64,000 nt of DNA from an uncultured Bacilli bacterium (lineage in GTDB: Bacteria > Bacillota_I > Bacilli_A > RF39 > UBA660): assembly GCA_934101425.1 (NCBI GenBank), contig CAKOQQ010000008.1:3088-67087 (forward strand). Direction: 5' to 3'. Within the stretch, counting starts at the first letter, position 1, and each line of letters starts with the position of its first letter. Positions 1-59,758 of the stretch are shown one piece after another. The notes beneath the pieces were generated by a model. The model was not told where the DNA came from. It saw nothing but the letters and a program-made list of their open reading frames with translations, and did no database searches. The translations under genes were made by a program, and so were the position numbers.

Positions 1-30
1 TTTATTTCTTCATTTGTTTCATTTATTATT

Positions 31-645: not shown

Positions 646-653
646 AAGACCTC

Positions 654-1811: not shown

Positions 1812-1814
1812 ATT

Positions 1815-2036
1815 TCACCCATATTCTATACTTTTTATTTTGCCATGAATTAAAATCTCATCTTTTAATAGTTTCTTTATAACTAAATCTTCACCAATTA
1901 CTTTTATAATACCATCTTTATGTTTTAACTTAATTTCTTCTCTTGAAAATGATAATACTTCAAGATAATTAGTTATATAAACATTATCATTTATTATATT
2001 TACTTCTAAACTATCATTTCTTAAATACTCAAACAT
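1815..2036 (-). CDS. yqfC: sporulation protein YqfC
   Basis: 73-aa ORF immediately upstream of yqfD, the conserved yqfC-yqfD pair. Confidence 0.75.
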   Translation of the reverse strand: MFEYLRNDSLEVNIINDNVYITNYLEVLSFSREEIKLKHKDGIIKVIGEDLVIKKLLKDEILIHGKIKSIEYG

Positions 2037-2080
2037 ATTTCACCTTATTTAATTTTATTTTTAGTACAAAAGAAAAAGAA

Positions 2081-2917
2081 CTATTTTTTATAGTTCTTTT
2101 TATATGCTATTTCTAATTCTCTTAATACTTTTTCTCTTAAAGACTGATAAAAAGTAATTATACTACTTATTGTTTCTTTAGGGTATTTAGCTAAATCACT
2201 ATCACTTAATACTAAGTCTAAATCTAGTATACGTTCTAAATCAGCTACTATTTCATATTTATTAAATGAACTTAAGAATTGATCATTTAGACTATATGTA
2301 AATTTAGAATCATCTATAAATGGTACAACATCTTTTTTTGGTGCAAATGGTTTAGATACTTTTCTCATTAAATGTAAATAATCTAGTATGTCATAAGCAC
2401 TTAAGCTATTATCTAATGTCATTATAGTTAAATGATTTAATAGTTCTAACCATTCTTTAGGTAGACCATACCCTCCACCATATTTTCTTCTATCTACTCT
2501 TTCAACTAAGTGTGAATTACTAGTTTTACTTTGATTTAAAATAAAATTTTGATTAGCTAAATCTTCAAGAGGTTTTGCATATATTATTTTTATTGAGCTC
2601 ATAGAACTTAATTCACTAGCTTCACTTTGAATTATATTTACCATATCTTTATATGTTTTATCTTGAAGTAAATGATTTCTGCTTAAAACAAATCCTTTAT
2701 CTTTTCCTAATTCACTTACTATTTGTTTTAATCTTTTAGCTACAAAATATTTATGATGATTAATTCCTTTTGAAAAATATACATATCTATCACAATCCTT
2801 AAATGGATTTACACTTCTGATATTGATATGTTCAAAACTTTTTCCACCTTGAAAACGATACCAAGCGCTAATATCATTAGTGTTTAATCCTTTAAGTGTC
2901 TCATCTAGTAATGCCAT
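2081..2917 (-). CDS. hypothetical protein
   Basis: Long ORF. Listed start is GTG at 2929; the ATG at 2917 preceded by GAGGTGG is the more likely start. No family recognised. Confidence 0.6.
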   Translation of the reverse strand: MALLDETLKGLNTNDISAWYRFQGGKSFEHINIRSVNPFKDCDRYVYFSKGINHHKYFVAKRLKQIVSELGKDKGFVLSRNHLLQDKTYKDMVNIIQSEASELSSMSSIKIIYAKPLEDLANQNFILNQSKTSNSHLVERVDRRKYGGGYGLPKEWLELLNHLTIMTLDNSLSAYDILDYLHLMRKVSKPFAPKKDVVPFIDDSKFTYSLNDQFLSSFNKYEIVADLERILDLDLVLSDSDLAKYPKETISSIITFYQSLREKVLRELEIAYKKNYKK

Positions 2918-2989
2918 ATGCCACCTCACGGCTAATTATATTAACATAATCATATATTTTAGTCAAATAAAAGAAGTATATGTATACTT

Positions 2990-5900: not shown

Positions 5901-6352
5901 ACAGCAGCTAAATGATTAGCATTTTCAACACTACTTGATGCTAATATACAAAAACCAGTTTGTCTAGTTGCATATATATCTTGGTGATCTCCAAATATAC
6001 TAAGAGCATGAGTAGCTAGACTTCTTGCAGCTACATGAATAACTGCTGGTAACATTTCACCAGCCATTTTATACATATTAGGAATCATTAAAAGTAATCC
6101 TTGACTAGCTGTAAAAGTAGTAGTTAAAAGTCCTGATTGTAGTGATCCATGTACAAGGCCAGCGGCTCCTGCTTCACTTTGCATTTCAACTACTTTAACA
6201 CTATCATTAAAAATATTTTTTCTATCACTCCAATTATCAATACTTTCTGCCATTGGACTTGATGGTGTAATAGGATATATACCTGCTACTTCGGTAAACA
6301 TATATGCTGTGCTAGCACAAGCTTCATTTCCATCTACTGTTATTTTTCTCAT
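2990..6352 (-). CDS. por: pyruvate:ferredoxin (flavodoxin) oxidoreductase
   Basis: 1120 aa; two 4Fe-4S ferredoxin motifs (CIMCNKCSFICP, CTGCKVCINNCP); TPP motif GGDGWAYDIGYGG; full-length PFOR/NifJ architecture. Confidence 0.95.
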   Translation of the reverse strand: MRKITVDGNEACASTAYMFTEVAGIYPITPSSPMAESIDNWSDRKNIFNDSVKVVEMQSEAGAAGLVHGSLQSGLLTTTFTASQGLLLMIPNMYKMAGEMLPAVIHVAARSLATHALSIFGDHQDIYATRQTGFCILASSSVENANHLAAVAHLSSIKSSIPFLHFFDGFRTSHEIDKINALELEDIKPLVPYDSINKFRAKALNPNKPFTRGTAENDDVYFQITESRNNDYNKVADIVEKYMMDINKIANTDYKPFNYYGSKTAKKVIVAMGSVTETIKSVIDYEKGDIGLIEVHLYRPFSVKHLLNVLPSTVESIAVLDRTKEAGSIGEPLYLDVVAALKDKNINIVGGRYGLSSKDTNAAMIKAVFDMLDNPKNNFTIGINDDVTNLSLEVDKTYKISNSLEFLVYGYGSDGMVSACKSIIKLVGNLTDKYVQGYFQYDSKKSGGVTIGHLRFDDNKIKSTYYVENPKLVVCTKDTYLDKYNMLEHIKENGIFILNTEKDIDELNKINNDIKKIILEKNIKFYTINAYKLAEEINLPGKISTIMESVILYLSNVIDYDRTKEEMKLYAKNKFSKKGDDVVLANYKAIDEAVNYLKEVNLDNLEGKFVSYGTSLYEEMSDRKGDSIPVSKFIPLRDGTFMPNTSKFDKRGISSSVPTCDISKCIMCNKCSFICPHAVIRPFLIDEEEYSKLPDNIKNKCKKPVLPALKDYYYLLSFSVMDCTGCKVCINNCPNKALSLTPLNSEEQDIYNYLSKNIKDKHINKDNVINSQFTESKFKYSGACQGCGETPYIKVLTQLFGDNMIIANATGCSSIYGGSVPSTPYNLPWSNSLFEDNAEYGYGILIGNKTIRDRIKTIMENNMDNPNRELFELYINNIDNYDITKQVYDSLDYNTCPKELNELKDYIAKRSVWAIGGDGWAYDIGYGGIDHVLSTNDNVNILVLDSQVYSNTGGQASKASPKGAVALFAAKGKQNAKKDLARIALSYPHVYVATVSMGANMNQLLKVFKEAENYNGPSIIIAYSPCISHGIKGGMENSILMEKLATECGYFPIFHYNPVDKKFTLDSKNVNFDLYDEFLSMQNRYNMLKKVNEDHYKELLESNKNNAISRYNYYKELDNK

Positions 6353-6353
6353 T

Positions 6354-6986
6354 TTATTTTTCTCCCTCTTTTAATGAATTTATTTTACTTTCATATTCTC
6401 CATTAGTTATATAACTACCAACCACTGATATATTAGCTTCTTTTATTTTCTTTATTGTTTCATTATTTATTCCACCATCTACTTCTATTACGTAGTTATA
6501 ACTATGTTGTAATTTATATAATTCTTCTACTTTTTCTTTGCTAGATTCTATAAATGCTTGTCCTCCACGACCAGGTTCTACGCTCATAACTAATACTAAA
6601 TCAATATTTTTTAGATATGGAATTATTTTATCTACACTAGTATTAGGTTTTATTGATAAACCTACTTTTATACCTTTATTTTTTATATAATTTATATCAC
6701 CCAATATATCTTTACTAGCTTCATAATGAAATGTTATATATTCTGGATTTAAATTACTATACATATCTACATACTCTTTAATATCTTCTACCATTAAATG
6801 AATATCCTTTTTATGGGTAGTATCCTTTAAAATAGAAGCTGCTTCTAAATAATCCATTGTTTTATTTGTAACAAAGACACCATCCATTACATCTACATGT
6901 ATATAATCTATATTTAATTTATCTATTTTACTTAATTCTTCTTTTATATTATCTTTTATACTTAAGTATGATACTGCTATTTTCAT
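6354..6986 (-). CDS. rpe: ribulose-phosphate 3-epimerase
   Basis: 210 aa; HVDVMDG, VMSVEPGRGGQ and EVDGGIN motifs. Confidence 0.9.
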   Translation of the reverse strand: MKIAVSYLSIKDNIKEELSKIDKLNIDYIHVDVMDGVFVTNKTMDYLEAASILKDTTHKKDIHLMVEDIKEYVDMYSNLNPEYITFHYEASKDILGDINYIKNKGIKVGLSIKPNTSVDKIIPYLKNIDLVLVMSVEPGRGGQAFIESSKEKVEELYKLQHSYNYVIEVDGGINNETIKKIKEANISVVGSYITNGEYESKINSLKEGEK

Positions 6987-7070
6987 ATTATCACCATTAT
7001 AATTTTATCATATTTTTTTATTTTATTCTATAAAAACACATTATTATAATTTATATGTTATGTTTATTTA

Positions 7071-7108
7071 ACAAGGGGCTTGGTATATTTGTATATCAAG
7101 TCCCTTGT
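7071..7108. repeat. 12-bp-arm inverted repeat (ACAAGGGGCTTG / CAAGTCCCTTGT) with 14-nt spacer
   Basis: Read directly. One G:T position, so it pairs fully only as plus-strand RNA. No U-tract follows. Confidence 0.6.
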
Positions 7109-7114
7109 ATTTAC

Positions 7115-7140
7115 AAAAAAACACACTTAGTGTGTTTTTC
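7115..7140 (-). terminator. rho-independent terminator after rsgA
   Basis: AAAAACACAC-TAA-GTGTGTTTTT followed by a T-run on the minus strand. A/T-flanked, so potentially bidirectional. Confidence 0.75.
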
Positions 7141-7186
7141 TTAGACTACTTACAAAGTAAAATTTGACAATAGTCTGAAATACCTT

Positions 7187-8023
7187 TTAAAAGGTATTTT
7201 TTTTATCTATAAATTTTAAATAATTTAAATATCTAGAATTTAATATATTAGTACCTACTTGTCTTTTAATTTCACAATCATCTTCCTTATTATGCATACA
7301 ATCTTTATATTTGCATAAACCTCTATATTTATTAAATTCTATCATATTATCTCTTATATCACTTTCAGTCATACCACTAAAATCTAATGAACTAAATCCT
7401 GGTGTATCTGCTACTAAACCACCTTCTAAACTAAATAATTCAGTATGTCTTGTAGTATGTTTACCTCTATTTAAGGCTTTACTTATTTCATTTGTTTTTA
7501 AGTTAAAATCACTATTTAATCTATTTAATAAACTAGATTTACCACTACCACTTTGTCCTGTAAATACAGTTACTTTATCCTTAAATATATTTTTTATATT
7601 TAAATCATTATTATAGTAAACATTATATCCAATAGATTCATAATACTTTTTATAATCATCTATTACTTTAAATTCATCTTTACTTAATAAATCTATTTTA
7701 GAAATACATATTATAGGTTTAATATTATTAAATTCTATTGTTACTAATAATTTATCTAATAAGTTAGTATCAAAATCAGGACTTTTACTACTTGCTAATA
7801 TTACTACTTGATCTATATTAGCAACACTAGGTCTTACAAGAGAATTTTTTCTCTTTTTTATTTCTAATATATAATTACTATTTTCATCAAATACTACATT
7901 ATCACCAACTAATGGTATTTCTTTAGTATTTCTAAATTTACCTCTTGGTTTACAAACATATAATTTATCAGATGATTTAATAGTATAATCATTACTAATA
8001 TTTTTTACTATTTTACCTTCCAT
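7187..8023 (-). CDS. rsgA: ribosome small-subunit biogenesis GTPase RsgA
   Basis: Circularly permuted GTPase motifs (ISKIDL, GQSGSGKSSL); C-terminal zinc cluster C..C.H.....C. Confidence 0.9.
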   Translation of the reverse strand: MEGKIVKNISNDYTIKSSDKLYVCKPRGKFRNTKEIPLVGDNVVFDENSNYILEIKKRKNSLVRPSVANIDQVVILASSKSPDFDTNLLDKLLVTIEFNNIKPIICISKIDLLSKDEFKVIDDYKKYYESIGYNVYYNNDLNIKNIFKDKVTVFTGQSGSGKSSLLNRLNSDFNLKTNEISKALNRGKHTTRHTELFSLEGGLVADTPGFSSLDFSGMTESDIRDNMIEFNKYRGLCKYKDCMHNKEDDCEIKRQVGTNILNSRYLNYLKFIDKKNTF

Positions 8024-9723
8024 TATTCACCTTTAGCGACTGCAATTTTAATAACTAATGATGCTTTTGCAGTTACAACAGATCCTTCTGGTCTACTTTG
8101 TGAAATAATAACTCCTGGTGCATATTCATCTGTTTCTACTTCTGTGAAACTACAATTTATATCATTATCAGAGCAGAATGATTCAATAGAAGCTCTACTA
8201 TAACCTTCTAAATTAAAGTTAGGATAAGTTACTACTATATCTGGAATAGTAAGTGTTATAGAATCTCCTTCTTCAAGTAATTTTCCAGGTTCAATGCTTT
8301 GTTTAATAATTTGATTCTTTTTATATTTAGAATCAGATTTATTTACTTCCATTTTTTCAGGGAATACATATAAACCTTTTTCTTCTAACATTTTTTTAAC
8401 TTCATCATAGTCTTTACCAACGTAGTTTTCTATTTTAATGGCGTTACTACCTTTAGAAATAATTAAAGTTATTTTTGTATCTTTAACTCTTTTTGCTCCT
8501 GCTACTGGACTAGTAGATATAACACTACCTTCTGCTACATCATTACTATATTTTTCTTCATATTCATCTGCTACTATAAAACCTTTTTCTTTTAGTTTAT
8601 TTTCAGCTTCTAAAATAGTTAAACCAGCTACATTAGGAACTTCTATTTCTTCTTTTGTTTTACCTGTTGAGAAAAATATAACAAATACTAAACTAGCAGC
8701 TACTAGAAATAAGAAAATTGCTCCACTTATCCATACCGCTAAATCTAAACCTTTTTTCTTCTTTTGTTTTACCACCTTATTTTCTCCTTCTTCTTTTCTT
8801 TCTTCTCTTATAAATTCTTTTACATCTTCTAGATTCTTAGTTTCTTCAATATCTTCATGTTCAGGGTAACTATAAACTAATCTTCTAACATTTCTATTTT
8901 CTTCTTTCATACATTCTAATAAATCATTTCTCATTTCAGTAACATTTTTATATCTATTTTTGGGATTTTTTGCACAACATGCTAAGATAATATTTTCTAC
9001 TGATTGAGGTATTTCAGGATTTATCTTTGTAACACTAGGAATTGGTTCTTTTAACTGTTTAATTGCTACTTCAACAGCGTTATCACCTTTAAATGGTACT
9101 TTACCAGTTAATAATTCAAACATCAATATTCCCATAGAATATATATCACTTCTTATTGTAGAACCACTACCATTTGCCATTTCCGGTGGAAGATAATGAA
9201 CACTTCCCATTACAGAATTTGTTTGTGTAAGTTCTTGAGCATTTATGGCAGTTGCAATACCAAAGTCAGTTACTTTAATAGTACCATCATCAAGCATAAG
9301 AATATTTTGTGGTTTAATATCTCTATGAATTATATATTTATCATGAGCACATTCTATAGCACTAGTAAGTTGTAACATAATATCTATTACTTCTGGTAAT
9401 GTAAGCGCTCCTCTTTTTTTAATTAAATTTTTAAGAGTTTGACCATCAATATATTCCATTACAATAAAATAATTATCATCATCCTTACCAACATCATACA
9501 TTTCTACAACATTAGGATGAATAATAGTAGCGGCCGCATTAGCTTCTCTTTGAAATTTTTTTACAAATTTTTCATCTTGAGCTAAATCACCTCTTAATAT
9601 TTTAACAGCTACATTACGATCTAATATAGTGTCATGAGCTAAATAAACATTAGCCATTCCACCTTCACCAATACTTCTAATTATTTGGTATCTATCATTT
9701 ATTTTTTGACCTTTCATTAGCAT
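8023..9723 (-). CDS. prkC: Ser/Thr protein kinase with PASTA repeats (PrkC type)
   Basis: Hanks kinase motifs (GEGGMANVY, HRDIKPQN, DFGIA), one TM, three PASTA-like repeats. Overlaps the phosphatase gene by 1 nt. Confidence 0.9.
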   Translation of the reverse strand: MLMKGQKINDRYQIIRSIGEGGMANVYLAHDTILDRNVAVKILRGDLAQDEKFVKKFQREANAAATIIHPNVVEMYDVGKDDDNYFIVMEYIDGQTLKNLIKKRGALTLPEVIDIMLQLTSAIECAHDKYIIHRDIKPQNILMLDDGTIKVTDFGIATAINAQELTQTNSVMGSVHYLPPEMANGSGSTIRSDIYSMGILMFELLTGKVPFKGDNAVEVAIKQLKEPIPSVTKINPEIPQSVENIILACCAKNPKNRYKNVTEMRNDLLECMKEENRNVRRLVYSYPEHEDIEETKNLEDVKEFIREERKEEGENKVVKQKKKKGLDLAVWISGAIFLFLVAASLVFVIFFSTGKTKEEIEVPNVAGLTILEAENKLKEKGFIVADEYEEKYSNDVAEGSVISTSPVAGAKRVKDTKITLIISKGSNAIKIENYVGKDYDEVKKMLEEKGLYVFPEKMEVNKSDSKYKKNQIIKQSIEPGKLLEEGDSITLTIPDIVVTYPNFNLEGYSRASIESFCSDNDINCSFTEVETDEYAPGVIISQSRPEGSVVTAKASLVIKIAVAKGE

Positions 9724-10460
9724 TATTTACCACCTCGCATATCTAAGAAAGCGACTGTTATATTATCAGTACCACCTCTATTGTTGCTTTTTGATATAAG
9801 TTTTTGTAGTTTTTCTTCTATTGTTTTATGTTCATCTAATACTTTTTCTATTGCTTCTTCACTAAGCATATTAGTTAAACCATCACTACATAAGAAAATT
9901 CCTTCTACATTATCTTCAACATCAAATATATCCATTTCTACTTTTTTATCTGCACCAAGTGCTCTCATAAGTACATTCTTTCTTGGATGATTCTTAGCTT
10001 CTTCTTCACTTAATTCTCCACTTCTTACTAATAAGTTTACTAATGTATGATCAGTAGTTATTTTATGTAATCTCTTATTTTTAAGTACATATCCAGAACT
10101 ATCTCCTATATTACCAAATAACAAGAAATCTTTAGTATATAAAGCTAGTACTAAAGTTGTACCCATACCTTCACTACCTGGATTTTCACTAGTATATTTA
10201 TATATTGCTGCATTAGCTTCTCCAACTATTTCTTTTATCCAATTTATAGTATCTTCTTTAGAACCAATTTTACTTATTTGTTCAAATCTTTTACCAATTT
10301 TATTAACAACGATATTTGATGCTATTTCTCCTCCAGTATGCCCTCCCATACCATCAGCTACTATAAGTAAATATTCATCAAAATCATTTTTGATAATAAG
10401 GACACTATCTTCATTTCTTTCCCTAACTTTTCCAGGATCAGTTAAATAAAAATATTCCAT
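9723..10460 (-). CDS. prpC: PP2C-family Ser/Thr phosphatase (Stp/PrpC)
   Basis: RERNEDS, ADGMGGH, SDGL and GGTDNIT motifs. Confidence 0.9.
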   Translation of the reverse strand: MEYFYLTDPGKVRERNEDSVLIIKNDFDEYLLIVADGMGGHTGGEIASNIVVNKIGKRFEQISKIGSKEDTINWIKEIVGEANAAIYKYTSENPGSEGMGTTLVLALYTKDFLLFGNIGDSSGYVLKNKRLHKITTDHTLVNLLVRSGELSEEEAKNHPRKNVLMRALGADKKVEMDIFDVEDNVEGIFLCSDGLTNMLSEEAIEKVLDEHKTIEEKLQKLISKSNNRGGTDNITVAFLDMRGGK

Positions 10461-11479
10461 TATTCACCTCTATTTTCTTTCGCTTTTAATTGACCACAAG
10501 CTCCACTAACTTTAGAACCAAATTCGCGTCTTATAGTCACATTAATATTATGTTTTTTTAAAGTATCATAAAACTTCATAATTACGTCTTTATCACTTTT
10601 CTTATATTTACTACTAGTTTCATTATAAGGTATTAAATTTACATAACAATTTAGTCCCTTAAGTAAGTTAGCTAATTCTATGGCAGAGGATACGCTATCA
10701 TTAACATCTTTAAGTAAAATATATTCAAAAGTAACTCTTCTATTTGTTTTATCTATATATTCTTTTATAGCACTTATAAGTTTTTCTATATTATAAGCTC
10801 TATTAATAGGCATAAGTTCATTTCTAATTTTATTATTAGGTGCATGAAGACTTATCGCTAAATTAACTTGTTTATAATTAGAAAATTCTTTTATTTTAGG
10901 AACTATTCCACAAGTAGATATAGTTATATGTCTACTACCTAAACTAATACCTTTACTATCATTTATAATGTCTATAAATTTAATTACATTATCATAATTA
11001 TCAAAAGGTTCACCTATACCCATAAGTACAATATGAGTAATCCTAAGTGATTCCGTGATTTCTACAGTTAATATTTGACTAACCATTTCAGAAGGTAATA
11101 AATCCCTTACTTTTTTAAGTCTTCCACTTTCACAGAAGGCACATCCCATATTACAACCCAATTCAGTTGAAATACATAAACTATTACCATAGTCGTGAAA
11201 CATAAGTACACACTCTATTTTGTTATTATCACTTAAATTAAATAAATACTTTTTAACACCTGTATCTTCTTCTTTTTTTACTAATTCTAAAAGTCCTATA
11301 GTAAAATCTTCTTTAAGTTTAGTTATAAGTTCTTTTTTTAAATTAGTCATTTCATCAAAAGATGATACTCTTTTTTTATATAACCAATCAAATATTTGAT
11401 CTGCAGTAAACTTTTTATACCCCAAATCTAATAAATAATTGAGTAATTCCTCATATGTAAGATTATAAATACTACTCAT
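10460..11479 (-). CDS. rlmN: 23S rRNA/tRNA adenine-C2 methyltransferase RlmN (radical SAM)
   Basis: CNMGCAFC radical-SAM cluster, C-terminal GACGQL, position after prkC-prpC. Confidence 0.9.
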   Translation of the reverse strand: MSSIYNLTYEELLNYLLDLGYKKFTADQIFDWLYKKRVSSFDEMTNLKKELITKLKEDFTIGLLELVKKEEDTGVKKYLFNLSDNNKIECVLMFHDYGNSLCISTELGCNMGCAFCESGRLKKVRDLLPSEMVSQILTVEITESLRITHIVLMGIGEPFDNYDNVIKFIDIINDSKGISLGSRHITISTCGIVPKIKEFSNYKQVNLAISLHAPNNKIRNELMPINRAYNIEKLISAIKEYIDKTNRRVTFEYILLKDVNDSVSSAIELANLLKGLNCYVNLIPYNETSSKYKKSDKDVIMKFYDTLKKHNINVTIRREFGSKVSGACGQLKAKENRGE

Positions 11480-11595
11480 ATTTTCACCTATACCAATTAT
11501 AGCATTTTTAATATAATAAGTAAAACAAAAAACAATACTAAATCGTTATAAAATAACTATTTAATATTGTTTTTTACTTTTATTAGACATAAGTC

Positions 11596-11808
11596 TTATA
11601 TATTCATAATTATAGAAATAACAAAGAAAGCGATTACAAGAGCTAATGTAAGTCTTGTAATAAATAATTCTCCGCCTCTTTCTTTTCTATTAGCAAATAA
11701 ATCACTACTACCGCCACTAATTATATTAGATGTACTTTCTGCTTTACCAGATTGTAATAATACTAATGCAATTAATAAGATTGATACTATCATTAATAAT
11801 ACTGTCAT
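11596..11808 (-). CDS. secG: preprotein translocase subunit SecG
   Basis: 70 aa, two TM segments, LLQSGK motif. Confidence 0.8.
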   Translation of the reverse strand: MTVLLMIVSILLIALVLLQSGKAESTSNIISGGSSDLFANRKERGGELFITRLTLALVIAFFVISIIMNI

Positions 11809-11859
11809 AATTTCACCTCAATACTTAGTAATTTTAACATATTTAATAAATAAATGCAA

Positions 11860-13131
11860 CTATTTAGGTTCTATTATATAAATTAGTTTATTAGATAAGT
11901 CAATATTACTTACTACATAAGAAACATCATCCATAGTTAAATTTTTAACTAATTCAAGTTCATTTGTATATACTTTATTATAATCAGTTATATCATCTAT
12001 TATTCTATCATTAGTTCTAAATATATTTTCAGTAGAACTTATAAGACCACTTATCATTATACGTTTTCTTCTTTCAAATTCAAGTGGAGTTATAGATAAA
12101 TGTGATAGTGTTTCTGTGATTTCTTTTATAAGAACTTTTTCTTTTTTAGTTTCTGCTAATAATAATACTAAATAATGGGTATCAGTAACCATTACAGTAG
12201 TAGATACAGGAGATGTAATAATATCAGATTCTCTTAATTTTTCACTTAATATAGAAGTAGATCCTACCTTTAAATCAAATATATGATTTATTAGTCTAGT
12301 AGCCATTTTAGAATCTATATCTTTAAATAAATTTTTATTTATTTTATAAGCTAAACATACTTTACTAATAGAAGTATTCATTTTAACTTTTTCTTCTTTT
12401 TTAGCTACTTTATCAGGTTCTTTATATTTTTTTCTTACAATTTTCTTTTCTTCTTTTAAATCTCTTTTACTTTCAAAATCTTTTATTATAGTTATTACTT
12501 CAGTTGGGTTAACATTACCAGTTACTACTATAAACATATTAGATGGATGATAAAAAGTATTATAGCATTCATATAATTGTTCTTTTGTTATACTTCTTAT
12601 ACTTTCTAGATCACCTAATATAGAAACATTATAAGGTAATTTAATAAAAGCATTTTCTAAAGCTCCATAAAATATACGACTATATGGATTATCTTCATTC
12701 ATCCTATATTCTTGTTCTATTATGCCTTTTTCCTTTTCTACATTTTCATCTGTAAAATATGGACTTTCCACATAATGAAGTAACATCTCTAAATTTTCTT
12801 TAAAATATTCTGTACCAAAGAATAAATAACTTGTTCTCTCATAACTAGTATTGGCATTAGCGTTTGCACCACGTTCTTGATAAAAACTAAAAACATTAGT
12901 ATTATCTTCTTCTTCAAATAATTTATGTTCTAAGAAGTGAGCGATTCCCTTTGGAAACTTCTTCATTTTAGTTTCATTTAGAGGTATGAATTCATTATCT
13001 TTTCCACCATATTTAGTATTATATGTTACATAGATATTATTACAGTCATTCTTAGGAATTACATATATTTCAAGACCATTATCTAGTTTTTCATAATATA
13101 AATCCATATCAATTATTTTCTTCTTTTTCAT
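11860..13131 (-). CDS. M16-family zinc peptidase (active subunit, YmfH-like)
   Basis: Inverted zinc motif HFLEH present (GIAHFLEHKLF). Overlaps the upstream M16 paralog by 4 nt. Confidence 0.8.
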   Translation of the reverse strand: MKKKKIIDMDLYYEKLDNGLEIYVIPKNDCNNIYVTYNTKYGGKDNEFIPLNETKMKKFPKGIAHFLEHKLFEEEDNTNVFSFYQERGANANANTSYERTSYLFFGTEYFKENLEMLLHYVESPYFTDENVEKEKGIIEQEYRMNEDNPYSRIFYGALENAFIKLPYNVSILGDLESIRSITKEQLYECYNTFYHPSNMFIVVTGNVNPTEVITIIKDFESKRDLKEEKKIVRKKYKEPDKVAKKEEKVKMNTSISKVCLAYKINKNLFKDIDSKMATRLINHIFDLKVGSTSILSEKLRESDIITSPVSTTVMVTDTHYLVLLLAETKKEKVLIKEITETLSHLSITPLEFERRKRIMISGLISSTENIFRTNDRIIDDITDYNKVYTNELELVKNLTMDDVSYVVSNIDLSNKLIYIIEPK

Positions 13132-30120: not shown

Positions 30121-30148
30121 AAAACACACATCCAAATGGATGCGTGTT
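30121..30148 (-). terminator. rho-independent terminator after the pilin-Hint gene
   Basis: Minus strand ACACGCATCC-ATTT-GGATGTGTGT followed by TTTTT. Confidence 0.7.
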
Positions 30149-30220: not shown

Positions 30221-31750
30221 TTAATATTGACTAGCAATCATAACAGATATTAACGAATATGAAGTCTTAATGGAAATAGTTTTATTTTCTTTATCAATCT
30301 GATAAATGGGGGTTTCTTCCCATTTTTGTGTTTTCAAATTAAAACTTAAAATTCTAATATCATTTTCATCAAATGTTAATGTTGGAACTGATATATCAAT
30401 ATTATGGACATTTTTTTCATCTTTATCATAACAATCAATACCATAATTTGATATATTAAATACACTAGTAATCGCGTTTGACCCCTCAATAAGTTCTTTT
30501 AAAAATTCTGTCTCAGAAGTGGTTTGCTTAGTTCCAGAGGCAGATAATAAATCAACTAATTTAATTTTTCCATCATTAAATTGTTTAATTTTATTGAACA
30601 CTATTTCTGGTAATTCTTCATATTCACTAAAATCATCAGAAATATAGTGTCCATAAGCACTATCATTAATTACATGTAAACTATTATCTGCACTAGCAGC
30701 ATTATGTACTAATATTTCATTTTCAGTAATTAAGTAGTTATGATTATTTGCTATTGTCAAGTTATATACATTCACTGAATTATCCAAATTAAGAACTTCT
30801 ATATTTTTTATACTAGTTTTTCCGCCAATACTAGCTGATAATACATCTCCCACTTTTAATTCATATGCTCTAACCCATCCTTTATCAAGTACATAATATT
30901 GATGCTTTTCTGTAGAAGTTATTACTTTATTATTTTTTAATGTTATTTTATATAATTTATTATTTTTTGAAATCATAGTATCAATAACTCTATTTAATTC
31001 TTTTTCGTTACTTTCAATATTTATTGTATATACATAATCACCAATTTTAATATCTTCAATATTCTTTAAACCATTTCTTGTTAATACTTTTGTTCCTGCT
31101 ACAAAACACGTTGAAATTTGAAACAATCCTTTTATTACTGCAACATTTCCAAAAACATCTTCACTTTCAATTTTATAAATATTTGATGCTTTATTAGAAG
31201 TCCCTAAATAAGTTTTTTCATTCCCTCTATAAACAAGTATACCATTTACAAAATATCTTATTTCTTTTATTCCACTCGTATCTGAAGTATTTACATCTAT
31301 TTTATAATTACTAGTACTAGTATTAGTAATTACAGCTGATAAAAGTGGTGCATCTTTTTCAGCACTTCTAAGTATACATTCACTTTCATTTGTTTTAGTG
31401 CTTACAATACTTCCATCACTTTTAATTTCAATACAGTAATCATTAACATACATTTTTCCATATGCATTACCATTAGTATCATAACTTAAATAACCTTTAC
31501 TTGCTTTATCTCCCTCATATGTAAGTGTACTACCCGATAAATCTATATTTTTTACTGTTTCTCCTTCCATTATTTTTTGCATATAATATGTTTTTGCAGC
31601 ACTTACTATATTTCTTGCACTTGCTTCTGCCGCACTTTTTTTAGAGTCTTCTATAATGTTTAATACGGCTGGTACCGCTATTAGTGCAATAACTGCTAGT
31701 ATTACTATAACGGCTAATAACTCTATTAGGGTAAATCCTTTCTTTTTCAT
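30221..31750 (-). CDS. type IV pilin-like protein fused to a Hint (intein-like) autoprocessing domain and a 159-aa C-terminal domain (paralog E)
   Basis: MKKKGFTLIELLAVIVILAV prepilin signal (G-1, F+1, E+5). Residues 1-125 are shared with four paralogs. Residues 215-350 run CFVAGTKVLT...TEKH...ILVHN (Cys1, TxxH, terminal HN); next residue is Ala. Confidence 0.85.
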   Translation of the reverse strand: MKKKGFTLIELLAVIVILAVIALIAVPAVLNIIEDSKKSAAEASARNIVSAAKTYYMQKIMEGETVKNIDLSGSTLTYEGDKASKGYLSYDTNGNAYGKMYVNDYCIEIKSDGSIVSTKTNESECILRSAEKDAPLLSAVITNTSTSNYKIDVNTSDTSGIKEIRYFVNGILVYRGNEKTYLGTSNKASNIYKIESEDVFGNVAVIKGLFQISTCFVAGTKVLTRNGLKNIEDIKIGDYVYTINIESNEKELNRVIDTMISKNNKLYKITLKNNKVITSTEKHQYYVLDKGWVRAYELKVGDVLSASIGGKTSIKNIEVLNLDNSVNVYNLTIANNHNYLITENEILVHNAASADNSLHVINDSAYGHYISDDFSEYEELPEIVFNKIKQFNDGKIKLVDLLSASGTKQTTSETEFLKELIEGSNAITSVFNISNYGIDCYDKDEKNVHNIDISVPTLTFDENDIRILSFNLKTQKWEETPIYQIDKENKTISIKTSYSLISVMIASQY

Positions 31751-31772
31751 ATATCCTCCTTCTATTTATAAG

Positions 31773-31888: not shown

Positions 31889-31911
31889 ATACCTCACTTT
31901 CTTACTATACA

Positions 31912-31940
31912 AGTATATATTCTTTTTGTTAAGTTGTAAA
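31912..31940 (-). promoter_or_regulatory. sigma-A-type promoter for pilin E leader
   Basis: TTTACA-17 nt-TATACT on the minus strand. Confidence 0.5.
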
Positions 31941-43468: not shown

Positions 43469-43996
43469 TTACATCTCTATAGATGTTAAAACCCAATCAT
43501 AATTTTCTATATTGAATATACTGCCACAATACTCACATTTACCACTTGTGTTAACTGATATGTTAGCTCCACAACCTGGGCATTTTCTTGCAGATGAGTT
43601 ATATCCGCTATTTATAGTTTTTTCTAATGTTAAATAATTTATATTTTCTACTCTTCTAGTATTATCACCAGATACAACATTAAATTTTTCATCTACTTTA
43701 TAGTCCATATATCTAGATATTAATTTAACATTTATACATATTTTATTATCTTTAATTTCTATATTAGTAATATTTGTATCTTTTACATTTAATTCATCAT
43801 ACATTTGTCTTAAGTGTTTTTCTTTTAATTCTTTTAAAATAAGCTCATACTTCTTTTCTAAGTTATCACTTATAAAGTGTCTTACTCTATCTAAATCATC
43901 CATCATTATTGATGTATATAGCATTATAAATATGTTATTTACTTTTGTTATAAACATTGCTTCATTAAAATCTTTATCTATACTTCTAATATCCAT
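43469..43996 (-). CDS. Tim44-like domain protein with C-terminal zinc ribbon
   Basis: 175 aa. Tim44-like layout ending in WVLTSIE. CPGCG...CEYCG. Start overlaps the upstream stop by 1 nt. Confidence 0.6.
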   Translation of the reverse strand: MDIRSIDKDFNEAMFITKVNNIFIMLYTSIMMDDLDRVRHFISDNLEKKYELILKELKEKHLRQMYDELNVKDTNITNIEIKDNKICINVKLISRYMDYKVDEKFNVVSGDNTRRVENINYLTLEKTINSGYNSSARKCPGCGANISVNTSGKCEYCGSIFNIENYDWVLTSIEM

Positions 43997-44865
43997 TATA
44001 CATTCCTTTGATTAACACATGTTTTTTTGCTCATAACATATTCTTTTGCATCTACTACTACTACACTTCCACAGTATTCACATTTAGCCCCTGTTACTAC
44101 ATCTACCTTAGCTCCACAGTTTGGACAAATAGTTTCTTCGCTAGTATTTTCTTTTTTAACAAATGTAATTTCATATTCGATACTTATTTTTTTTGAACTA
44201 GAACCACGTACTACTTTATCATTTTCATCTACTACATAATCATACATTTCAACATTTAAGTATATAGAAACATTTAACATACCATTTACATTTTCAGCTT
44301 TATATACTTTTACACCTTTTAATTCAAAGTCTTTCATTATATTTTTTTGTTTCTTCATTCTTAAAACATCTAATTGCATTTTATATGAATTATATATTTC
44401 ATCAGTAGTTAATTTTCTTAAAGTATCATAATCAAAATTCATCCATGCAATTTGAATATCTTTATATTTTTCAAATACTAATGCTTTAAATTCTTCTAAA
44501 GACATACCAAGAATTTTATCATCTTCTATTTCTTTATATAATGCTTCTCTACTACTTCTTGTAGATGCTTTATATCCCGTATTATCTTTTGTAAAATATA
44601 TAAATAATACTACACATATTATTACAAGTAAAAATGTAAAACTAGAGCCACTATATGATCCAGATGAACTTCTGCTACTACCAGACCAAGAAGATCCTCC
44701 ACTATCCCATGAAGACGAGCCCCCTCCGCTAGACCAAGAGCCTCCTCCTCCATCATAAGAACTATCCCATCCACTATCTGCTTTTACATTTGGTATTACA
44801 AATGTAATTGCAACTAGTGAAAAAATAGATATAATTGTAATAAATATTTTCTTCTTATTATTCAC
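43996..44865 (-). CDS. membrane protein: signal/TM, Gly-Ser-Trp-rich region, TM, Tim44-like domain, zinc ribbon
   Basis: 289 aa. DSGWDSSYDGGGGSWSSGGGSSSWDSGGSSWSGSS low-complexity tract. CPNCG...CEYCG. Confidence 0.6.
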   Translation of the reverse strand: MNNKKKIFITIISIFSLVAITFVIPNVKADSGWDSSYDGGGGSWSSGGGSSSWDSGGSSWSGSSRSSSGSYSGSSFTFLLVIICVVLFIYFTKDNTGYKASTRSSREALYKEIEDDKILGMSLEEFKALVFEKYKDIQIAWMNFDYDTLRKLTTDEIYNSYKMQLDVLRMKKQKNIMKDFELKGVKVYKAENVNGMLNVSIYLNVEMYDYVVDENDKVVRGSSSKKISIEYEITFVKKENTSEETICPNCGAKVDVVTGAKCEYCGSVVVVDAKEYVMSKKTCVNQRNV

Positions 44866-44981: not shown

Positions 44982-46046
44982 CTATTGTGAAATATTAGAT
45001 TTTAAGACAGTTACAACTGGGCGCACACCGAAGCCTCCTATATGAGACACGCTGAAGTAGTACAATCTGCCACCTTGACTCACGAACCAAGCGCTGGAAG
45101 AAAAGCCGGAATGTGCAGTATTTGTCCAGTATCCATAAGTACTAGAATCTGCTACATTACATCCGAATCTTGTACAATCCTTTATATTATCAAATAGCCA
45201 TGCATATCTATTTGTTCCAGCATCTCCAGTGTATTGTGTTCCTAATGTGTTATTATGGAAGTAATACGCTTGATTATCCCAATTTGGATATCCTGTTATT
45301 GTTGCTATTTCTCTTGCTTCTATTAGTCTAGCATTTATACTTTTGTTCCAACTAGATGTATCACTTTTTAGTTGTTTTAATAATGTAATTGGTCCTTTAC
45401 TGTTATTTCCATGAAGATCATATTCTGCTTCTGTTCCACCTGATTCAATATAATCTTCTTCCGATATCCATGCAACTAATGCCGTTGTATTATGGTCTAG
45501 TAGTAGGTTTACTGTATCATTTCCTTCGTCATTAAAGATATACCATCTCATACATCCTGTTTTAGTCCCTGTAGTGCTTACTGCTTCACTACCACTACAT
45601 TTCTTATTTGTTTCTGGATTATAGTATACTACTGTTCCATTTGCGTATGTAGTTACTTGTGGAATGTCTATAGTGCATTCACTTTCATTTGTTTTAGTGC
45701 TTGTTATGGTTCCATTAGATGATACTTCAATGCAGTATCCTGATATATACATTTTACCACTTACATTACCGTTAGTATCATAACTAAGTAACCCTTTTTT
45801 TGCTTGTTCTCCATCATATTTTAATGTGTTAGTGCTTAAATCAATATTAGAATTTGTTTTATTATCCATTATATTTTTCATGTAATGTGTTTTTGCAGCA
45901 CCTACAATACTTCTTGCACTTGCTTCTGCTGCACTTTTTTTAGAATCTTCTATAATATTTAATACTGCTGGTGTTGCTATTACTGCAATAACTGCTAGTA
46001 TTACTATTACAGCGAGTAACTCTATTAGTGTAAATCCTTTTTTCAT
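44982..46046 (-). CDS. bimodular type IV pilin-like protein (paralog A)
   Basis: Start moved to MKKGFTLIELL (ATG 46046, GGAGG upstream). Pilin module plus a Cys-containing C-terminal module ending GVRPVVTV. Confidence 0.85.
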   Translation of the reverse strand: MKKGFTLIELLAVIVILAVIAVIATPAVLNIIEDSKKSAAEASARSIVGAAKTHYMKNIMDNKTNSNIDLSTNTLKYDGEQAKKGLLSYDTNGNVSGKMYISGYCIEVSSNGTITSTKTNESECTIDIPQVTTYANGTVVYYNPETNKKCSGSEAVSTTGTKTGCMRWYIFNDEGNDTVNLLLDHNTTALVAWISEEDYIESGGTEAEYDLHGNNSKGPITLLKQLKSDTSSWNKSINARLIEAREIATITGYPNWDNQAYYFHNNTLGTQYTGDAGTNRYAWLFDNIKDCTRFGCNVADSSTYGYWTNTAHSGFSSSAWFVSQGGRLYYFSVSHIGGFGVRPVVTVLKSNISQ

Positions 46047-46276: not shown

Positions 46277-47284
46277 TCAAGACATCAATAAAGCTTTATC
46301 TACAGTAATAACTGGGCGAATACCGTAATTGTCTGTATCCAAGTAGTATCTGAAAAAGAAGCCATAGTTGTTCACGATTCCATTGAGGTAAAAATTTCCG
46401 GAATATACATTGCCTGTCCAGTATCCCTCGTTACTAGAATCTGCTACATTACATCCAAATCTTGTACAATCTTTCGTGTTATCAAATAGCCATGCATATT
46501 TATTAGTTCCTGCTGCTCCTTCATAAGGCGTATTTGAATTTGTATGGAAATAATATGCATCGCTTCCTGCTGTATTTCCTGTTATTCTGACGATTTCGCT
46601 TTCTTCTATTAGTCTTGGGTTTATACTTTTATTCCAAGAGCTTGTATCACTTTCTAGTTGTGCTTTTACTTCAACTGAGTCATTAGTATTTGTACCACTT
46701 GATGCCAATGCAACAAATGCTGTCGTATTATGATCTAGTAGTAGATTAACTATATCATTTCCTTTATCATTAAATGCATACCACCTCATACATCCTGTTT
46801 TAGTTCCAGTAGTGCTTACTGCTTCAGCACTTGTACATTTACTGTTTGTTTCTGGATTATAGTATACTACTGTTCCATTTGCGTATGTTGTTACTTGTAG
46901 AACGTCTATATCACATTCACTTTCATTTGTTTTAGTGCTTGTAATAGTTCCATCAGATGATACTTCTACACAATAACCACTTATATACATTTTTCCATAT
47001 GCAGTACCATTAGTATCATAACTAAGTAATCCTTTTTTAGCTTGTTCTCCATCATATTTTAATGTGTTAGTGCTTAAATCAACATTAGAATTTGGTTTAT
47101 TATCCATTAGATTTTCCATGTAATGGCTTTCTGCAGTTCTTACTATATTTCTTGCACTTGCTTCTGCTGCACTTTTTTTAGAGTCTTCAATAACATTTAA
47201 TACTGCAGGGGTTGCTATTAGCGCTATTACTGCTAGTATTACTATTACTGCTAAGAGCTCTATTAATGTAAATCCTTTTTTCAT
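46277..47284 (-). CDS. bimodular type IV pilin-like protein (paralog B)
   Basis: MKKGFTLIELLAVIVILAVIALIA. Same module order; shorter middle region. AAGGAGG RBS. Confidence 0.85.
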   Translation of the reverse strand: MKKGFTLIELLAVIVILAVIALIATPAVLNVIEDSKKSAAEASARNIVRTAESHYMENLMDNKPNSNVDLSTNTLKYDGEQAKKGLLSYDTNGTAYGKMYISGYCVEVSSDGTITSTKTNESECDIDVLQVTTYANGTVVYYNPETNSKCTSAEAVSTTGTKTGCMRWYAFNDKGNDIVNLLLDHNTTAFVALASSGTNTNDSVEVKAQLESDTSSWNKSINPRLIEESEIVRITGNTAGSDAYYFHTNSNTPYEGAAGTNKYAWLFDNTKDCTRFGCNVADSSNEGYWTGNVYSGNFYLNGIVNNYGFFFRYYLDTDNYGIRPVITVDKALLMS

Positions 47285-47348: not shown

Positions 47349-48428
47349 TTATTGGGCTTCTAACTGATCTTTCAATAAAGCTTTATCTACAGTGATAACT
47401 GGGCGAACACCAAAGGTGTCTATTTCGGCTAAAACTCCTGATCCCATACCCCCTCCGGCGCTTACTCCCCATGCTCTATAAGAATTGTTGGAATATACAG
47501 TGCCTGTCCAGTATCCATCGTTACTAGAATCTGCTACATTACATCCAAATGTTGTACAATATTTCGTGTTATCAAATAACCATGCATATTTATTTGTTCC
47601 TGCCGCTCCTTGATAAACTATTTGTGTGTTATCATGGAAATAATAATAATCTATACCTGCTGTCCATGTTGTGTTATTAGTTATTTTAGCTATTTCACTT
47701 GCTTCTATTAATCTAGCATTTATAGTTTTATTCCATGTGCTCGTATCACTTTTTAGTTGTTTTAATAATGTAATTGGCCCTTTACTATTATTTCCATAGT
47801 CTCCCCATTCTGCTTCTGTTCCACCTGCTGCAATATAATCTTCTTTTGATATCCAATCTACAGCTGCTGTTGTATTATGATCTAGTATTAAATTAACTTT
47901 AGATGATCCTTCATCATTAAATATATACCACTTCATACATCCTGTTTTTGTTCCTGTCACGCTTACTGTTTCCATTTTATGGCATGGCATGTTTATTTCA
48001 GGATTATAGATTACTACTCTTCCATTAGCATATCTTTTTTGTGGCTTTTCTATAATGCATTCATTTTCATCTGTTTTATCACTTGTAATAGTACCATTAT
48101 TTAGTATTTCTACACAATAACCACTTATATGCATTTTTCCATATGCTATTCCGTCTTCATTATAGTATAAATATCCTTTACTTGGTTTTTTTCCACTATA
48201 AGATAGTATATCACTAGATAAATCAATACCTGTTATTTCTTCATCTTTGTCTAGATTACTTGTATAATATTTTTCTGCTATGTTTTTTATCATTCTAGCA
48301 TCATTTTCTGCACTTTTCTTTTTTGCATTATTTACTGTTTTCTTTACTGCTGGTACTGCTATTAGTAGTATTACTGCTAGTATTACTATTACTGCGAGTA
48401 ACTCTATTAGGGTAAATCCTTTTTTCAT
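47349..48428 (-). CDS. bimodular type IV pilin-like protein (paralog C)
   Basis: MKKGFTLIELLAVIVILAVILLIA. Pilin module more diverged; C-terminal module conserved (GVRPVITV). Confidence 0.85.
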   Translation of the reverse strand: MKKGFTLIELLAVIVILAVILLIAVPAVKKTVNNAKKKSAENDARMIKNIAEKYYTSNLDKDEEITGIDLSSDILSYSGKKPSKGYLYYNEDGIAYGKMHISGYCVEILNNGTITSDKTDENECIIEKPQKRYANGRVVIYNPEINMPCHKMETVSVTGTKTGCMKWYIFNDEGSSKVNLILDHNTTAAVDWISKEDYIAAGGTEAEWGDYGNNSKGPITLLKQLKSDTSTWNKTINARLIEASEIAKITNNTTWTAGIDYYYFHDNTQIVYQGAAGTNKYAWLFDNTKYCTTFGCNVADSSNDGYWTGTVYSNNSYRAWGVSAGGGMGSGVLAEIDTFGVRPVITVDKALLKDQLEAQ

Positions 48429-58687: not shown

Positions 58688-59758
58688 TTAAGAGATGATA
58701 GATTTTGAGATAGTGATAACTGGGCGAACACCGTAGCTGTCTGCATCATCCACGTTGCCGCGGTTCAATTGGCCATTGCGGACCACGTGCCAAGCGTCGT
58801 GAGAATCGCCGGAATATGCAGTGTTTGTCCAGTATCCCAACAAAGTACTAGAATCTGCTACATTACATCCATATGTTGTACACTTATATGTATTATCAAA
58901 TAACCATGCATATTTGTTTGTTCCTGCTGCTCCACTATAAGGTGAATTTGAATTTATATGGAAAAAATAATAACTTCCTCCTGCTGTCCATCCATTATTT
59001 CCTGTTATAGTAGCTATTTCTCTTGCTTCTATTAGTCTAGCATTTATACTTTTATTCCAACTAGACGTATCACTTTTTAGTTGTTTTAATAATGTAATTG
59101 GTCCTTTACTGTTATTTCCATAACTTCCATATTCCGCTTCTGTTCCTCCAGCAGCAATATAATCTGCTTTTGATACCCATGCAAATGTTGATGTTGTATT
59201 ATGATCTAGTAGTAAATTAACTGTTGATGCTCCTTCATCATTAAAGGTATACCACTTCATACATCCTGTTTTAGTTCCTGTAGTGCTCACTGCTTCAGAG
59301 CTTGTGCATTTAGTATTTGTTACTGGATTATAATATACTACTGTACCATTTGCGTATGTAATTACTTGTGGAGTATCTATAGTGCATTCACTTTCATCTG
59401 TTTTAGTGCTTGTTATAGTTCCATTAGATGATACTTCTACGCAGTAACCACTTATATACATTTTACCACTTACATTACCATTATTATCGTAAGTAAGATT
59501 TCCTTTTTTAGCTTGTTCTCCATCATACTTTAATGTGTTAGTGCTTAAATCAATATTAGAGTTTGGCTTATTATCCATTATATTTTTTATATAATGTGTT
59601 TTTGCTGCACCTACAATACTTCTTGCACTTGCTTCTGCTGCACTTTTTTTAGAGTCTTCTATAATATTTAATACTGCAGGGGTTGCAATTAAAGCAATAA
59701 CTGCTAATATTACTATTACTGCTAATAACTCTATTAATGTAAACCCTTTCTTTTTCAT
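58688..59758 (-). CDS. bimodular type IV pilin-like protein (paralog D)
   Basis: MKKKGFTLIELLAVIVILAVIALIA. Very similar to paralog A over the first ~170 aa. C-terminal module ends YGVRPVITI. Confidence 0.85.
   Translation of the reverse strand: MKKKGFTLIELLAVIVILAVIALIATPAVLNIIEDSKKSAAEASARSIVGAAKTHYIKNIMDNKPNSNIDLSTNTLKYDGEQAKKGNLTYDNNGNVSGKMYISGYCVEVSSNGTITSTKTDESECTIDTPQVITYANGTVVYYNPVTNTKCTSSEAVSTTGTKTGCMKWYTFNDEGASTVNLLLDHNTTSTFAWVSKADYIAAGGTEAEYGSYGNNSKGPITLLKQLKSDTSSWNKSINARLIEAREIATITGNNGWTAGGSYYFFHINSNSPYSGAAGTNKYAWLFDNTYKCTTYGCNVADSSTLLGYWTNTAYSGDSHDAWHVVRNGQLNRGNVDDADSYGVRPVITISKSIIS

Follow-up and report, generated by a model that had tools for sequence, protein, structure and literature searches.

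We analyzed a 64-kb stretch of DNA (hereafter, the window) from an uncultured Bacilli bacterium (contig CAKOQQ010000008.1; G+C content 26%), in which a minus-strand gene at positions 30221..31750 encodes a protein that joins a type IV prepilin module to a Hint (intein-like) domain. The gene comprises 509 codons and a stop codon, begins with ATG, and encodes a complete modular prepilin-Hint protein, which consists of a pilin carrier, an immunoglobulin (Ig)-like spacer, the Hint domain, and a C-terminal tail of 159 residues. A Shine-Dalgarno sequence that can be read directly (AGGAGG; 31755..31760, minus strand) lies 4 nt 5' of the ATG. Further upstream, the 202-bp gap after nth contains two overlapping sigma-70-like promoter candidates (31904..31940, minus strand), which were found by consensus match only (10/12 each); the number of promoter-like sites around the gene is not above the expectation from shuffled sequence, and the site at 31904..31940 is a candidate only. 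An intrinsic terminator with an 11-bp stem and a T-run (30123..30148, minus strand) lies 73 nt past the stop codon, and the gene is monocistronic. The gene stands alone between nth and ponA in the Firmicute-conserved block gatCAB-asnS-hup-cca-dnaD-nth ... ponA-recU, and the 333-bp gap between its stop codon and the convergent ponA holds nothing larger than open reading frames (ORFs) of 26-48 residues. In a second metagenome sample (P0001/L085), the 509-residue ORF is intact, with 99% identity and the same synteny, and the 3' part is present in a third sample (L086), in which the copy ends at the contig end. An artefact or a pseudogene is ruled out by the Shine-Dalgarno sequence, the terminator, the full ORF in the second sample, and the 3' part in the third. 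Judging by the encoded SpoVA, YqfD, Mur ligase, MraY, and penicillin-binding proteins, the window host is a spore-forming, peptidoglycan-bearing Firmicute.

The N-terminal part of the protein is a type IV pilin module. Residues 1-25 (31676..31750, minus strand) constitute a class III (prepilin) signal peptide and N-methylation motif (MKKKG/FTLIELL), with predicted prepilin cleavage between Gly5 and Phe6, which places Gly at -1, Phe at +1, and Glu at +5. This segment scored above cutoff for both PF07963 (30.5 bits; cutoff 21.2) and TIGR02532 (32.5 bits; cutoff 16.3), which, together with Cys at positions 106 and 125, bears out the prepilin leader, Glu+5, and Cys pair that an initial annotation of the window had described. 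The carrier module as a whole (residues 1-125; 31376..31750, minus strand) comprises an alpha1 helix, a small four-strand head, and the Cys106/Cys125 pair, taken to form the disulfide bond of the head; in the AlphaFold2 (AF2) model, the helix spans residues 8-61 and the head strands fall within residues 85-119, with predicted local distance difference test (pLDDT) scores of 70-89. Its sequence matches in the PDB include the N-termini of PilE1, geopilin, and MshA; such a module would be processed by prepilin peptidase and may be polymerized by PilB/PilC-type machinery. Residues 126-214 had been annotated as a Ser/Thr/Asn-rich region of beta type. The beta character held, and the assignment can be refined to a predicted seven-strand beta-sandwich, which forms an Ig-like spacer at residues 136-211 (31118..31345, minus strand; AF2 pLDDT 74-88). 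The spacer matches Big_7 (PF17957) below threshold (22.8 bits; cutoff 24.1), and homologues have precomputed PF17957 matches.

The same carrier is present in four paralogous modular pilins encoded on the minus strand of the window, three in tandem (44982..46046, 46277..47284, and 47349..48428; 354, 335, and 359 residues) and a fourth at 58688..59758 (356 residues). As the initial annotation had proposed, these proteins share the prepilin module, with 56-74% identity to the Hint protein across residues 1-128 and no similarity beyond. The carrier is thus common to paralogs with other C-terminal modules, which indicates that the pilin module is reusable. In the four paralogs, the C-terminal domain (approximately 230 residues) shows a weak DUF6273 match and ends in G(V/I)RPV(I/V)TV. 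Directly downstream of the triple pilin array, two adjacent genes (43469-44865, minus strand) encode a Tim44-like domain with C-terminal zinc ribbons. A search with the pilin returned 3961 matches (E <= 0.001), mostly from uncultured gut Bacilli. This suggests that surface modules carried on pilins have expanded very strongly in the window lineage, with no filament machinery nearby. A scan of species-representative genomes, which was dominated by the generic motif FTL[IV]ELLAV, found the pilin family in metagenome-assembled genomes (MAGs) of uncultured gut Bacilli/'Tenericutes', and no pilin-Hint locus was among the 80 loci retained.

The central feature of the protein is the Hint domain at residues 215-350 (30701..31108, minus strand), which is of the A-type bacterial intein-like (BIL) / PT-HINT kind and carries Cys215, Thr280-x-x-His283, and His349-Asn350. 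Block B reads Thr280-Glu-Lys-His283, the +1 residue is Ala351, and the predicted scissile bonds are Thr214-Cys215 and Asn350-Ala351. Each of the elements on which the initial annotation had based its Hint assignment was recovered, namely the Cys-1, TxxH, and His-Asn motifs at nucleotides 31108-30701, Ala at +1, and a size of approximately 136 residues. The domain matches PT-HINT (PF07591) over the entire profile, with E=9e-19 for the whole protein and 2.8e-20 for the domain alone (73 bits; cutoff 27.7), and residues 215-350 also match the Intein_splicing, intein_Nterm, and intein_Cterm profiles. The best sequence match in the PDB is 2LWY, a BIL domain of Clostridium thermocellum (E=9e-21; 39% identity end to end). 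When the predicted Hint structure was compared using Foldseek, 2LWY again ranked first (target template-modeling (TM) score 0.89; root-mean-square deviation 2.1 A in this model), followed by the Tetrahymena BUBL BIL2 domain and then by mini-inteins. The PF07591 and intein profiles, 2LWY, and the fold comparison all place residues 215-350 in the Hint superfamily, which agrees with the original proposal. At 136 residues, the domain leaves no room for an endonuclease. A canonical mobile intein was rejected, as the element lacks an endonuclease, lies in a hypervariable host protein with Ala at +1, and does not occupy a conserved site of a conserved protein. The viral contigs contained just Hints of <= 40% identity over the full domain, by which a phage origin of the Hint is ruled out.

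The protein had been presented as a one-off with an integral tail. This picture did not hold; the protein belongs to a family whose members normally end with the Hint, and its 159-residue tail is the exception. A full-length search yielded 16 protein clusters with a prepilin module, a variable middle, and a Hint, with the middle being either Big_7-like or built of Flg_new repeats. When metagenome contigs were scanned using an alignment of the Hint alone, the pilin-linked clade was clearly set apart (E <= 1e-59). After de-duplication, the best 80 of 413 confirmed loci contained 25 distinct complete prepilin-Hint genes with DNA, which is a lower bound. These genes are from uncultured gut Bacilli and often occur 2-4 in tandem; one locus (L001) has four (999, 360, 355, and 366 residues) and another (L097) has three. 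The protein ends 3-19 residues past His-Asn in 24 of the 25 genes, and even the 999-residue protein of L001 ends four or five residues past the Hint; the 159-residue tail is found in the window protein only. Because the Hint is the last domain in 24/25, the general family layout is Hedgehog-like, and the window protein appears from this comparison to be a derivative that gained a further domain behind the Hint.

The Hint domains of the family are highly uniform. Across the 25 genes, their length is 134-136 residues, and 31 columns are invariant, among them those of Cys1, the block-B His, and the His-Asn at the end; all 25 have Thr or Ser at position 280. The C1, (T/S)xxH, and HN motifs are kept without exception, as the initial annotation would have predicted for a working Hint. 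The +1 residue is Ala in 11 genes, Val in 7, Met in 2, Leu in 1, and Ser in 4, which makes it non-nucleophilic in 21/25, and one further protein (P0010) has Thr at +1. We compared the segments of the 25 genes by median Nei-Gojobori ratio of nonsynonymous to synonymous substitution rates (dN/dS) and by mean amino acid identity. The alpha1 assembly helix (dN/dS 0.27; 64% identity) and the Hint (dN/dS 0.26; 63% identity) gave similar values, and the head and middle gave a dN/dS of about 0.97 at 30% identity, a ratio close to 1 that is inflated by poor alignment at this identity and by near-saturated synonymous sites, although the contrast is still large. These values indicate that the Hint is under purifying selection. 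The Hint is thus conserved and complete in its catalytic residues, lacks a nucleophile at +1 in most genes, and lies in a hypervariable exported host protein, a profile that fits the published definition of an A-type BIL.

We also noted features of the ends and arrangements of these and related proteins. The tails of 3-19 residues are non-random, with many containing xPSK(T/V)S or SP(S/T), such as ALPSKTS, VMPSKVS, AAPSKTS, and AQSTPSKTSN (P0005, P0040; L088-L099), and several finish in Cys (MPSTIC, AGSLTC, and AGSPSAC). At the same chromosomal locus as L001, an ORF that ends at a contig end (L087:3-1661, plus strand) contains two successive Ig-Hint modules in the order Flg_new-Ig-Hint, approximately 110 residues with two Cys, and Ig-Hint-ATSKTTS. 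From its sequence, this ORF looks like a fusion of two neighboring pilin-Hint genes in which the second alpha1 helix was lost, resulting in a Hint-punctuated polyprotein, and its two successive Ig-Hint modules show that fusions behind the Hint arise in these arrays. Outside the pilins, six loci (L115, L118, L120, L121, L123, and L126) encode ORFs of approximately 435-442 residues with a non-prepilin signal-anchor, Ig-like repeats, and a terminal Hint followed by A/V-K-x-C; because this gut surface family has one, a cargo-less terminal Hint is not confined to pilins. Two loci (L112:5463-6770 and L127:4024-6515) encode another prepilin-like leader without Glu+5 (KG/ITLIALV), Flg_new-type repeats, and a Hint, which is followed by 118 residues that resemble the start of a beta-helix in L112 and by 33-residue Ser/Pro-rich tails in the two tandem copies of L127. 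A single ORF of a Thermoplasmata archaeon MAG (L081:1754-3745) contains three tandem Hints with spacers of 5-6 residues (HN-SGEPDPS-CF... and HN-SGTVPA-CF...).

The tail of the window protein (residues 351-509; 30224..30700, minus strand) belongs to an unnamed family and is predicted to have a short helical segment ahead of a six-strand beta-sandwich. It is acidic (net charge -12), as first described, and had no match in Pfam, NCBIfam, or PHROG. A word-indexed search with the tail alone missed even the 97%-identical P0001, and its relatives were found by exhaustive phmmer and profile searches. The phmmer search of 1.84 billion representatives detected near-identical P0001 and distant P0121 and P0122 only (E = 6e-8 and 1e-5), and the profile search detected 21 proteins, mostly of 220-260 residues, without Pfam annotation. 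The tail aligns with the single globular domain of P0121-P0140 at 26-31% identity with 10 invariant positions. In all 18 relatives whose C-terminus is intact, a signal peptide and the domain are accompanied by SPKTG, a hydrophobic transmembrane helix, and a basic tail, and this combination of SPKTG, helix, and basic tail marks them as sortase substrates by signature. Two lineages have the gene within a locus of capsule type, where it immediately follows a sortase gene dedicated to it (gene order CpsB-Wzz-CpsD-like kinase-LCP-sortase-X-initiating transferase). At three such loci (L246:3714-5253, L247:1448-2987, and L248:5162-6732), SPKTG proteins of approximately 240 residues are always directly behind the dedicated sortase, and the initiating transferase is Bac_transf. 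An AF2 model of the tail built with the alignment of its relatives was confident, with a pLDDT of 78.5 and a predicted TM score (pTM) of 0.74, and Foldseek of the tail against the PDB returned generic beta-sandwich likeness only (best E = 0.034; TM <= 0.33), with weak ZU5 and GAIN matches that are not interpretable. The earlier description of the tail as lacking any recognizable motif must accordingly give way to homology with sortase-anchored surface proteins of capsule loci, and we conclude that the tail is a rare cell-envelope surface module rather than a toxin.

The best explanation of these observations, which we hold with moderate confidence from homology and conservation, is a modular pilin with an A-type BIL that would cleave itself at its junctions. 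After membrane insertion, prepilin peptidase would cut between Gly5 and Phe6, the N-terminal helix would hold it within the membrane or a type IV filament, and the remainder of the protein would fold extracellularly. Attack of Cys215 on the Thr214 carbonyl (an N-to-S acyl shift) would then result in a thioester, and cyclization of Asn350 would act at Asn350-Ala351. The predicted result is self-cutting at one or both Hint junctions, with mainly cleavage over ligation, as in characterized BILs. For the window protein, the tail and the Hint would be detached from the pilin-Ig stalk, which would make it a self-releasing pilin-tethered surface module. More broadly, prepilin-Hint surface proteins probably cut themselves after export and may also attach themselves covalently. 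The position of the Hint as last domain across the family suggests that the conserved family task is that of a self-removing C-terminal domain, and removal of the Hint would leave a new, transiently thioester-activated C-terminus on the hypervariable stalk. The conserved function must lie in the Hint itself and in the C-terminus of the stalk. We infer each part of this scheme, including the export route, the incorporation into filaments, the cleavage, and which junction matters.

Several points weigh against self-cleavage of a filament-borne protein. Part of the contrast in selection reflects the inflated ratio for the head and middle. Genes for a prepilin peptidase, an assembly ATPase, or a platform protein were found neither in the 64 kb of the window nor in the 10 kb around any of the homologues examined, so that the pilin module may be a membrane anchor rather than a filament subunit. 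The tail behind the Hint was seen in one species only, in three samples, and could be a recent, functionally neutral fusion; because the window and L085 differ at just 12 nucleotides (5 synonymous and 7 non-synonymous), selection on the tail is not resolvable between strains. Furthermore, the invariance of the terminal Asn suggests that chemistry at the C-terminal junction, on a peptide of 3-19 residues, is also selected, which our preferred scheme does not explain. An invariant Asn with little behind it, and the shared motifs and Cys ends of the short tails, keep slow splicing and capture of the thioester by something other than water alive.

The latter possibility is a covalent transfer like that of Hedgehog, BUBL, or sortase, in which the thioester would be resolved not by water but by a hydroxyl or amine of some target, so that the stalk becomes attached and the Hint is discarded. 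A terminal Hint would then be a built-in, single-use ligase, and candidate targets are the peptidoglycan stem peptide, a lysine of a neighboring subunit, or the surface of a host or foreign cell. That 24/25 genes end with the Hint, which is the Hedgehog layout, and the pairing of a hypervariable stalk with a conserved Hint are both consistent with transfer. In addition, Tetrahymena BUBL BIL2, which ranked second among the structural matches, is reported to form ATP-free isopeptide conjugates of its N-extein with Lys epsilon-amines of other proteins (PMC8616854, according to its section 2.4), and the relatives of the tail domain are themselves attached via thioester chemistry, by sortase. However, any acceptor is hypothetical, hydrolysis is dominant in characterized bacterial BILs, no region resembling a sterol-recognition adaptor lies behind the Hint, and the chemistry does not require the invariant terminal Asn. 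The host of one family member (P0014) also already encodes a sortase and a Cna_B adhesin, which likewise weakens the idea that the Hint replaces a missing sortase. We therefore regard transfer as unlikely, although the strongest competitor to self-cleavage.

Genuine, perhaps slow, splicing would instead excise the Hint and join the C-terminal segment (the 159-residue domain here and 3-19 residues elsewhere) to the pilin-Ig stalk; in the window protein, the tail domain would be displayed directly on the stalk. The initial annotation considered splicing excluded by the +1 residue, which was too strong, because PMC7664689 and PMC7765530, citing Dassa 2004 and Aranko 2013, report ligation by BILs without a nucleophilic side chain; splicing is better called disfavored. 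Its appeal lies in the invariance of His-Asn even with a tiny C-extein, the Ser at +1 in 4/25 genes and Thr in P0010, and the capacity of such BILs to become efficient splicers by a single mutation. Against this, the window protein has Ala at +1 and 21/25 genes have a non-nucleophilic residue there, cleavage is dominant according to reviews, and the domain is neither within a conserved host protein nor accompanied by a homing endonuclease. To keep a conserved 135-residue domain in order to add a few residues also seems implausible, and we give splicing little credence.

An idle Hint, which would be a structural or binding module at the stalk tip or a recent fusion without functional consequence, draws on the youth of the family; with Hints 47-70% identical, part of the conservation is shared ancestry. 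This view is hard to reconcile with four catalytic positions that are invariant in 25 genes, a dN/dS of 0.26, a length fixed at 134-136 residues, the retention of every intein block, and 39% identity to an experimentally active BIL, and we consider it improbable. Least probable of all, and largely refuted, is a polymorphic toxin in which the pilin delivers a 159-residue effector that PT-HINT frees on contact with a target cell: PT-HINT is the best Pfam family, a HINT directly precedes the toxin domain in polymorphic toxins (PMC3482391), and the closest non-pilin Hint relatives lie near the C-terminus of giant proteins, followed by tails of 85-160 residues, with orphan cassettes in some loci (clearest downstream of a 2910-residue ORF in L006, with Hint-plus-tail arrangements in L007, at 2572 residues, and other loci), yet here no immunity-sized ORF precedes the terminator and the convergent ponA, the acidic tail has no toxin profile or fold match, its only relatives are stand-alone SPKTG-anchored capsule-locus proteins without a Hint or immunity partner, 24/25 family members lack cargo and C-terminal polymorphism is absent, and immunity-like or orphan cassettes were not seen in the five neighborhoods examined (P0002, P0054, P0001, P0014, and P0040). 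As a contrast to the pilin clade, the L006 locus of Salinithrix halophila (3-12180) is a textbook polymorphic-toxin locus, in which the 2910-residue protein ends in a Hint and a tip of approximately 109 residues, followed by two orphan Hint-fragment and tip cassettes, with Cys at +2 past HN in 3/3.

Type IV pilins are thought to gain functions from modules, enzymatic or binding, that remain part of the pilin. With a conserved module that processes itself, this repertoire would extend to chemistry after export (self-cleavage, release, or ligation). The family is frequent in uncultured gut Bacilli, and its tandem arrays and hypervariable stalk suggest a surface role under diversifying pressure. 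For the intein and Hint field, the family is a compact and abundant natural set in which a BIL stands last in a protein outside the cell but has retained the Asn at its own C-terminus, which sharpens the long-standing question of what bacterial BILs are for. The Hint might also serve as an extracellular, thiol-independent tag for cleavage or ligation. If the doubtful ligase reading were true, these proteins would serve type IV filaments as covalent anchors or adhesins that need no further enzyme. Bacteria would then have, outside the cell, an equivalent of Hedgehog cholesteroylation and BUBL isopeptide conjugation that is functionally convergent with sortases and thioester-domain adhesins.

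BIL/PT-HINT domains and modular pilins are each already known separately, and we found no paper in the literature that joins BIL/PT-HINT domains with type IV pilins. The statement in the initial annotation that no Hint-bearing type IV pilin has been described is essentially right; the only trace is one line of Dataset S1 in Raynaud et al. (2021), 'IPR012902 - PF07591, 1 protein', which is one of 264 architectures and receives no comment in the text (PMC8179133). What is new is a sizeable, selected prepilin-Hint family in gut Bacilli, the placement of its Hint at the protein end, and the identity of the extra domain of the window protein.

Comparison with known systems places each part of the protein. 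The tail is homologous to the globular domain of the SPKTG surface proteins (P0121-P0140); those proteins begin with a Sec signal peptide, end with a sorting signal, and are encoded beside their sortase, whereas the window tail has neither signal and hangs from a Hint on a pilin. With the Hedgehog C-terminal domain (HhC) and BUBL BIL2, the family shares a terminal or inter-domain Hint and, by prediction, the formation of a thioester on the C-terminal end of the domain before it. In HhC the thioester is resolved by cholesterol and in BUBL by a lysine amine, whereas an acceptor in pilin-Hint proteins is hypothetical; moreover, HhC combines its Hint with a sterol-recognition adaptor and uses the N-S acyl shift only, in contrast to pilin-Hint proteins, in which the Asn is invariant and 3-19 residues lie behind the Hint in 24/25. 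Despite the similar layout, membership in the Hedgehog type fails. PT-HINT toxins (PF07591; Zhang et al., 2012), such as Neisseria MafB and Pseudomonas CdiA, share the Pfam family, the location near the C-terminus of an exported multidomain protein, and the predicted autopeptidase activity, but the family described here differs in having no toxin domain, immunity gene, or orphan cassettes, and its variable part is N-terminal, in the stalk. The word 'pilin' occurs 0 times in that survey, which does not mention a prepilin leader as a trafficking module (Zhang et al., 2012; PMC3482391). The Hint is in the PT-HINT sequence family, yet the protein is not a polymorphic toxin.

A modular pilin is defined by an N-terminal IPR012902 motif and at least one domain that is not specific to type IV pilus biology (Raynaud et al., 2021; PMC8179133), and the window protein, judged by its predicted domains, is a modular pilin. 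Like the Streptococcus sanguinis pilins PilB, with a vWA domain, and PilC, with a lectin domain, it grafts a non-pilin module onto a pilin carrier, which is reused in paralogs; the known grafts are binding or peptidase domains that stay attached, in contrast to the single-turnover autoprocessing domain found here.

The closest likeness of the Hint itself is to A-type BIL domains, of which 2LWY is the prototype. A-type BIL domains were reportedly described by Amitai and colleagues in 2003 and by Dassa and colleagues in 2004, and the prototype structure is said to be the work of Aranko and colleagues in 2013. The class is characterized by a Hint fold of approximately 130-150 residues with no endonuclease insert, an N-terminal Cys or Ser nucleophile, and a location away from the conserved sites of essential enzymes. 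Shared features are the Hint fold, Cys1, TxxH, His-Asn, and a size of approximately 135 residues without an endonuclease or a +1 nucleophile. When the +1 nucleophile is missing, BILs yield predominantly products cleaved at the N- and C-terminal junctions, and their hosts are non-conserved bacterial proteins, in which they occupy hypervariable regions (PMC7664689, PMC7765530); both they and the Hint described here lie in a variable region of a secreted or surface protein (30% identity in the N-extein here, versus 63% in the Hint). The difference is a type IV pilin-like host, which is undescribed for BILs, and the placement of the BIL mostly as the very last domain, with 3-19 residues behind it. 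Taken together, the fold, size, motifs, +1 residue, and variable host indicate that the Hint is an A-type BIL, for which autocatalytic cleavage is predicted.

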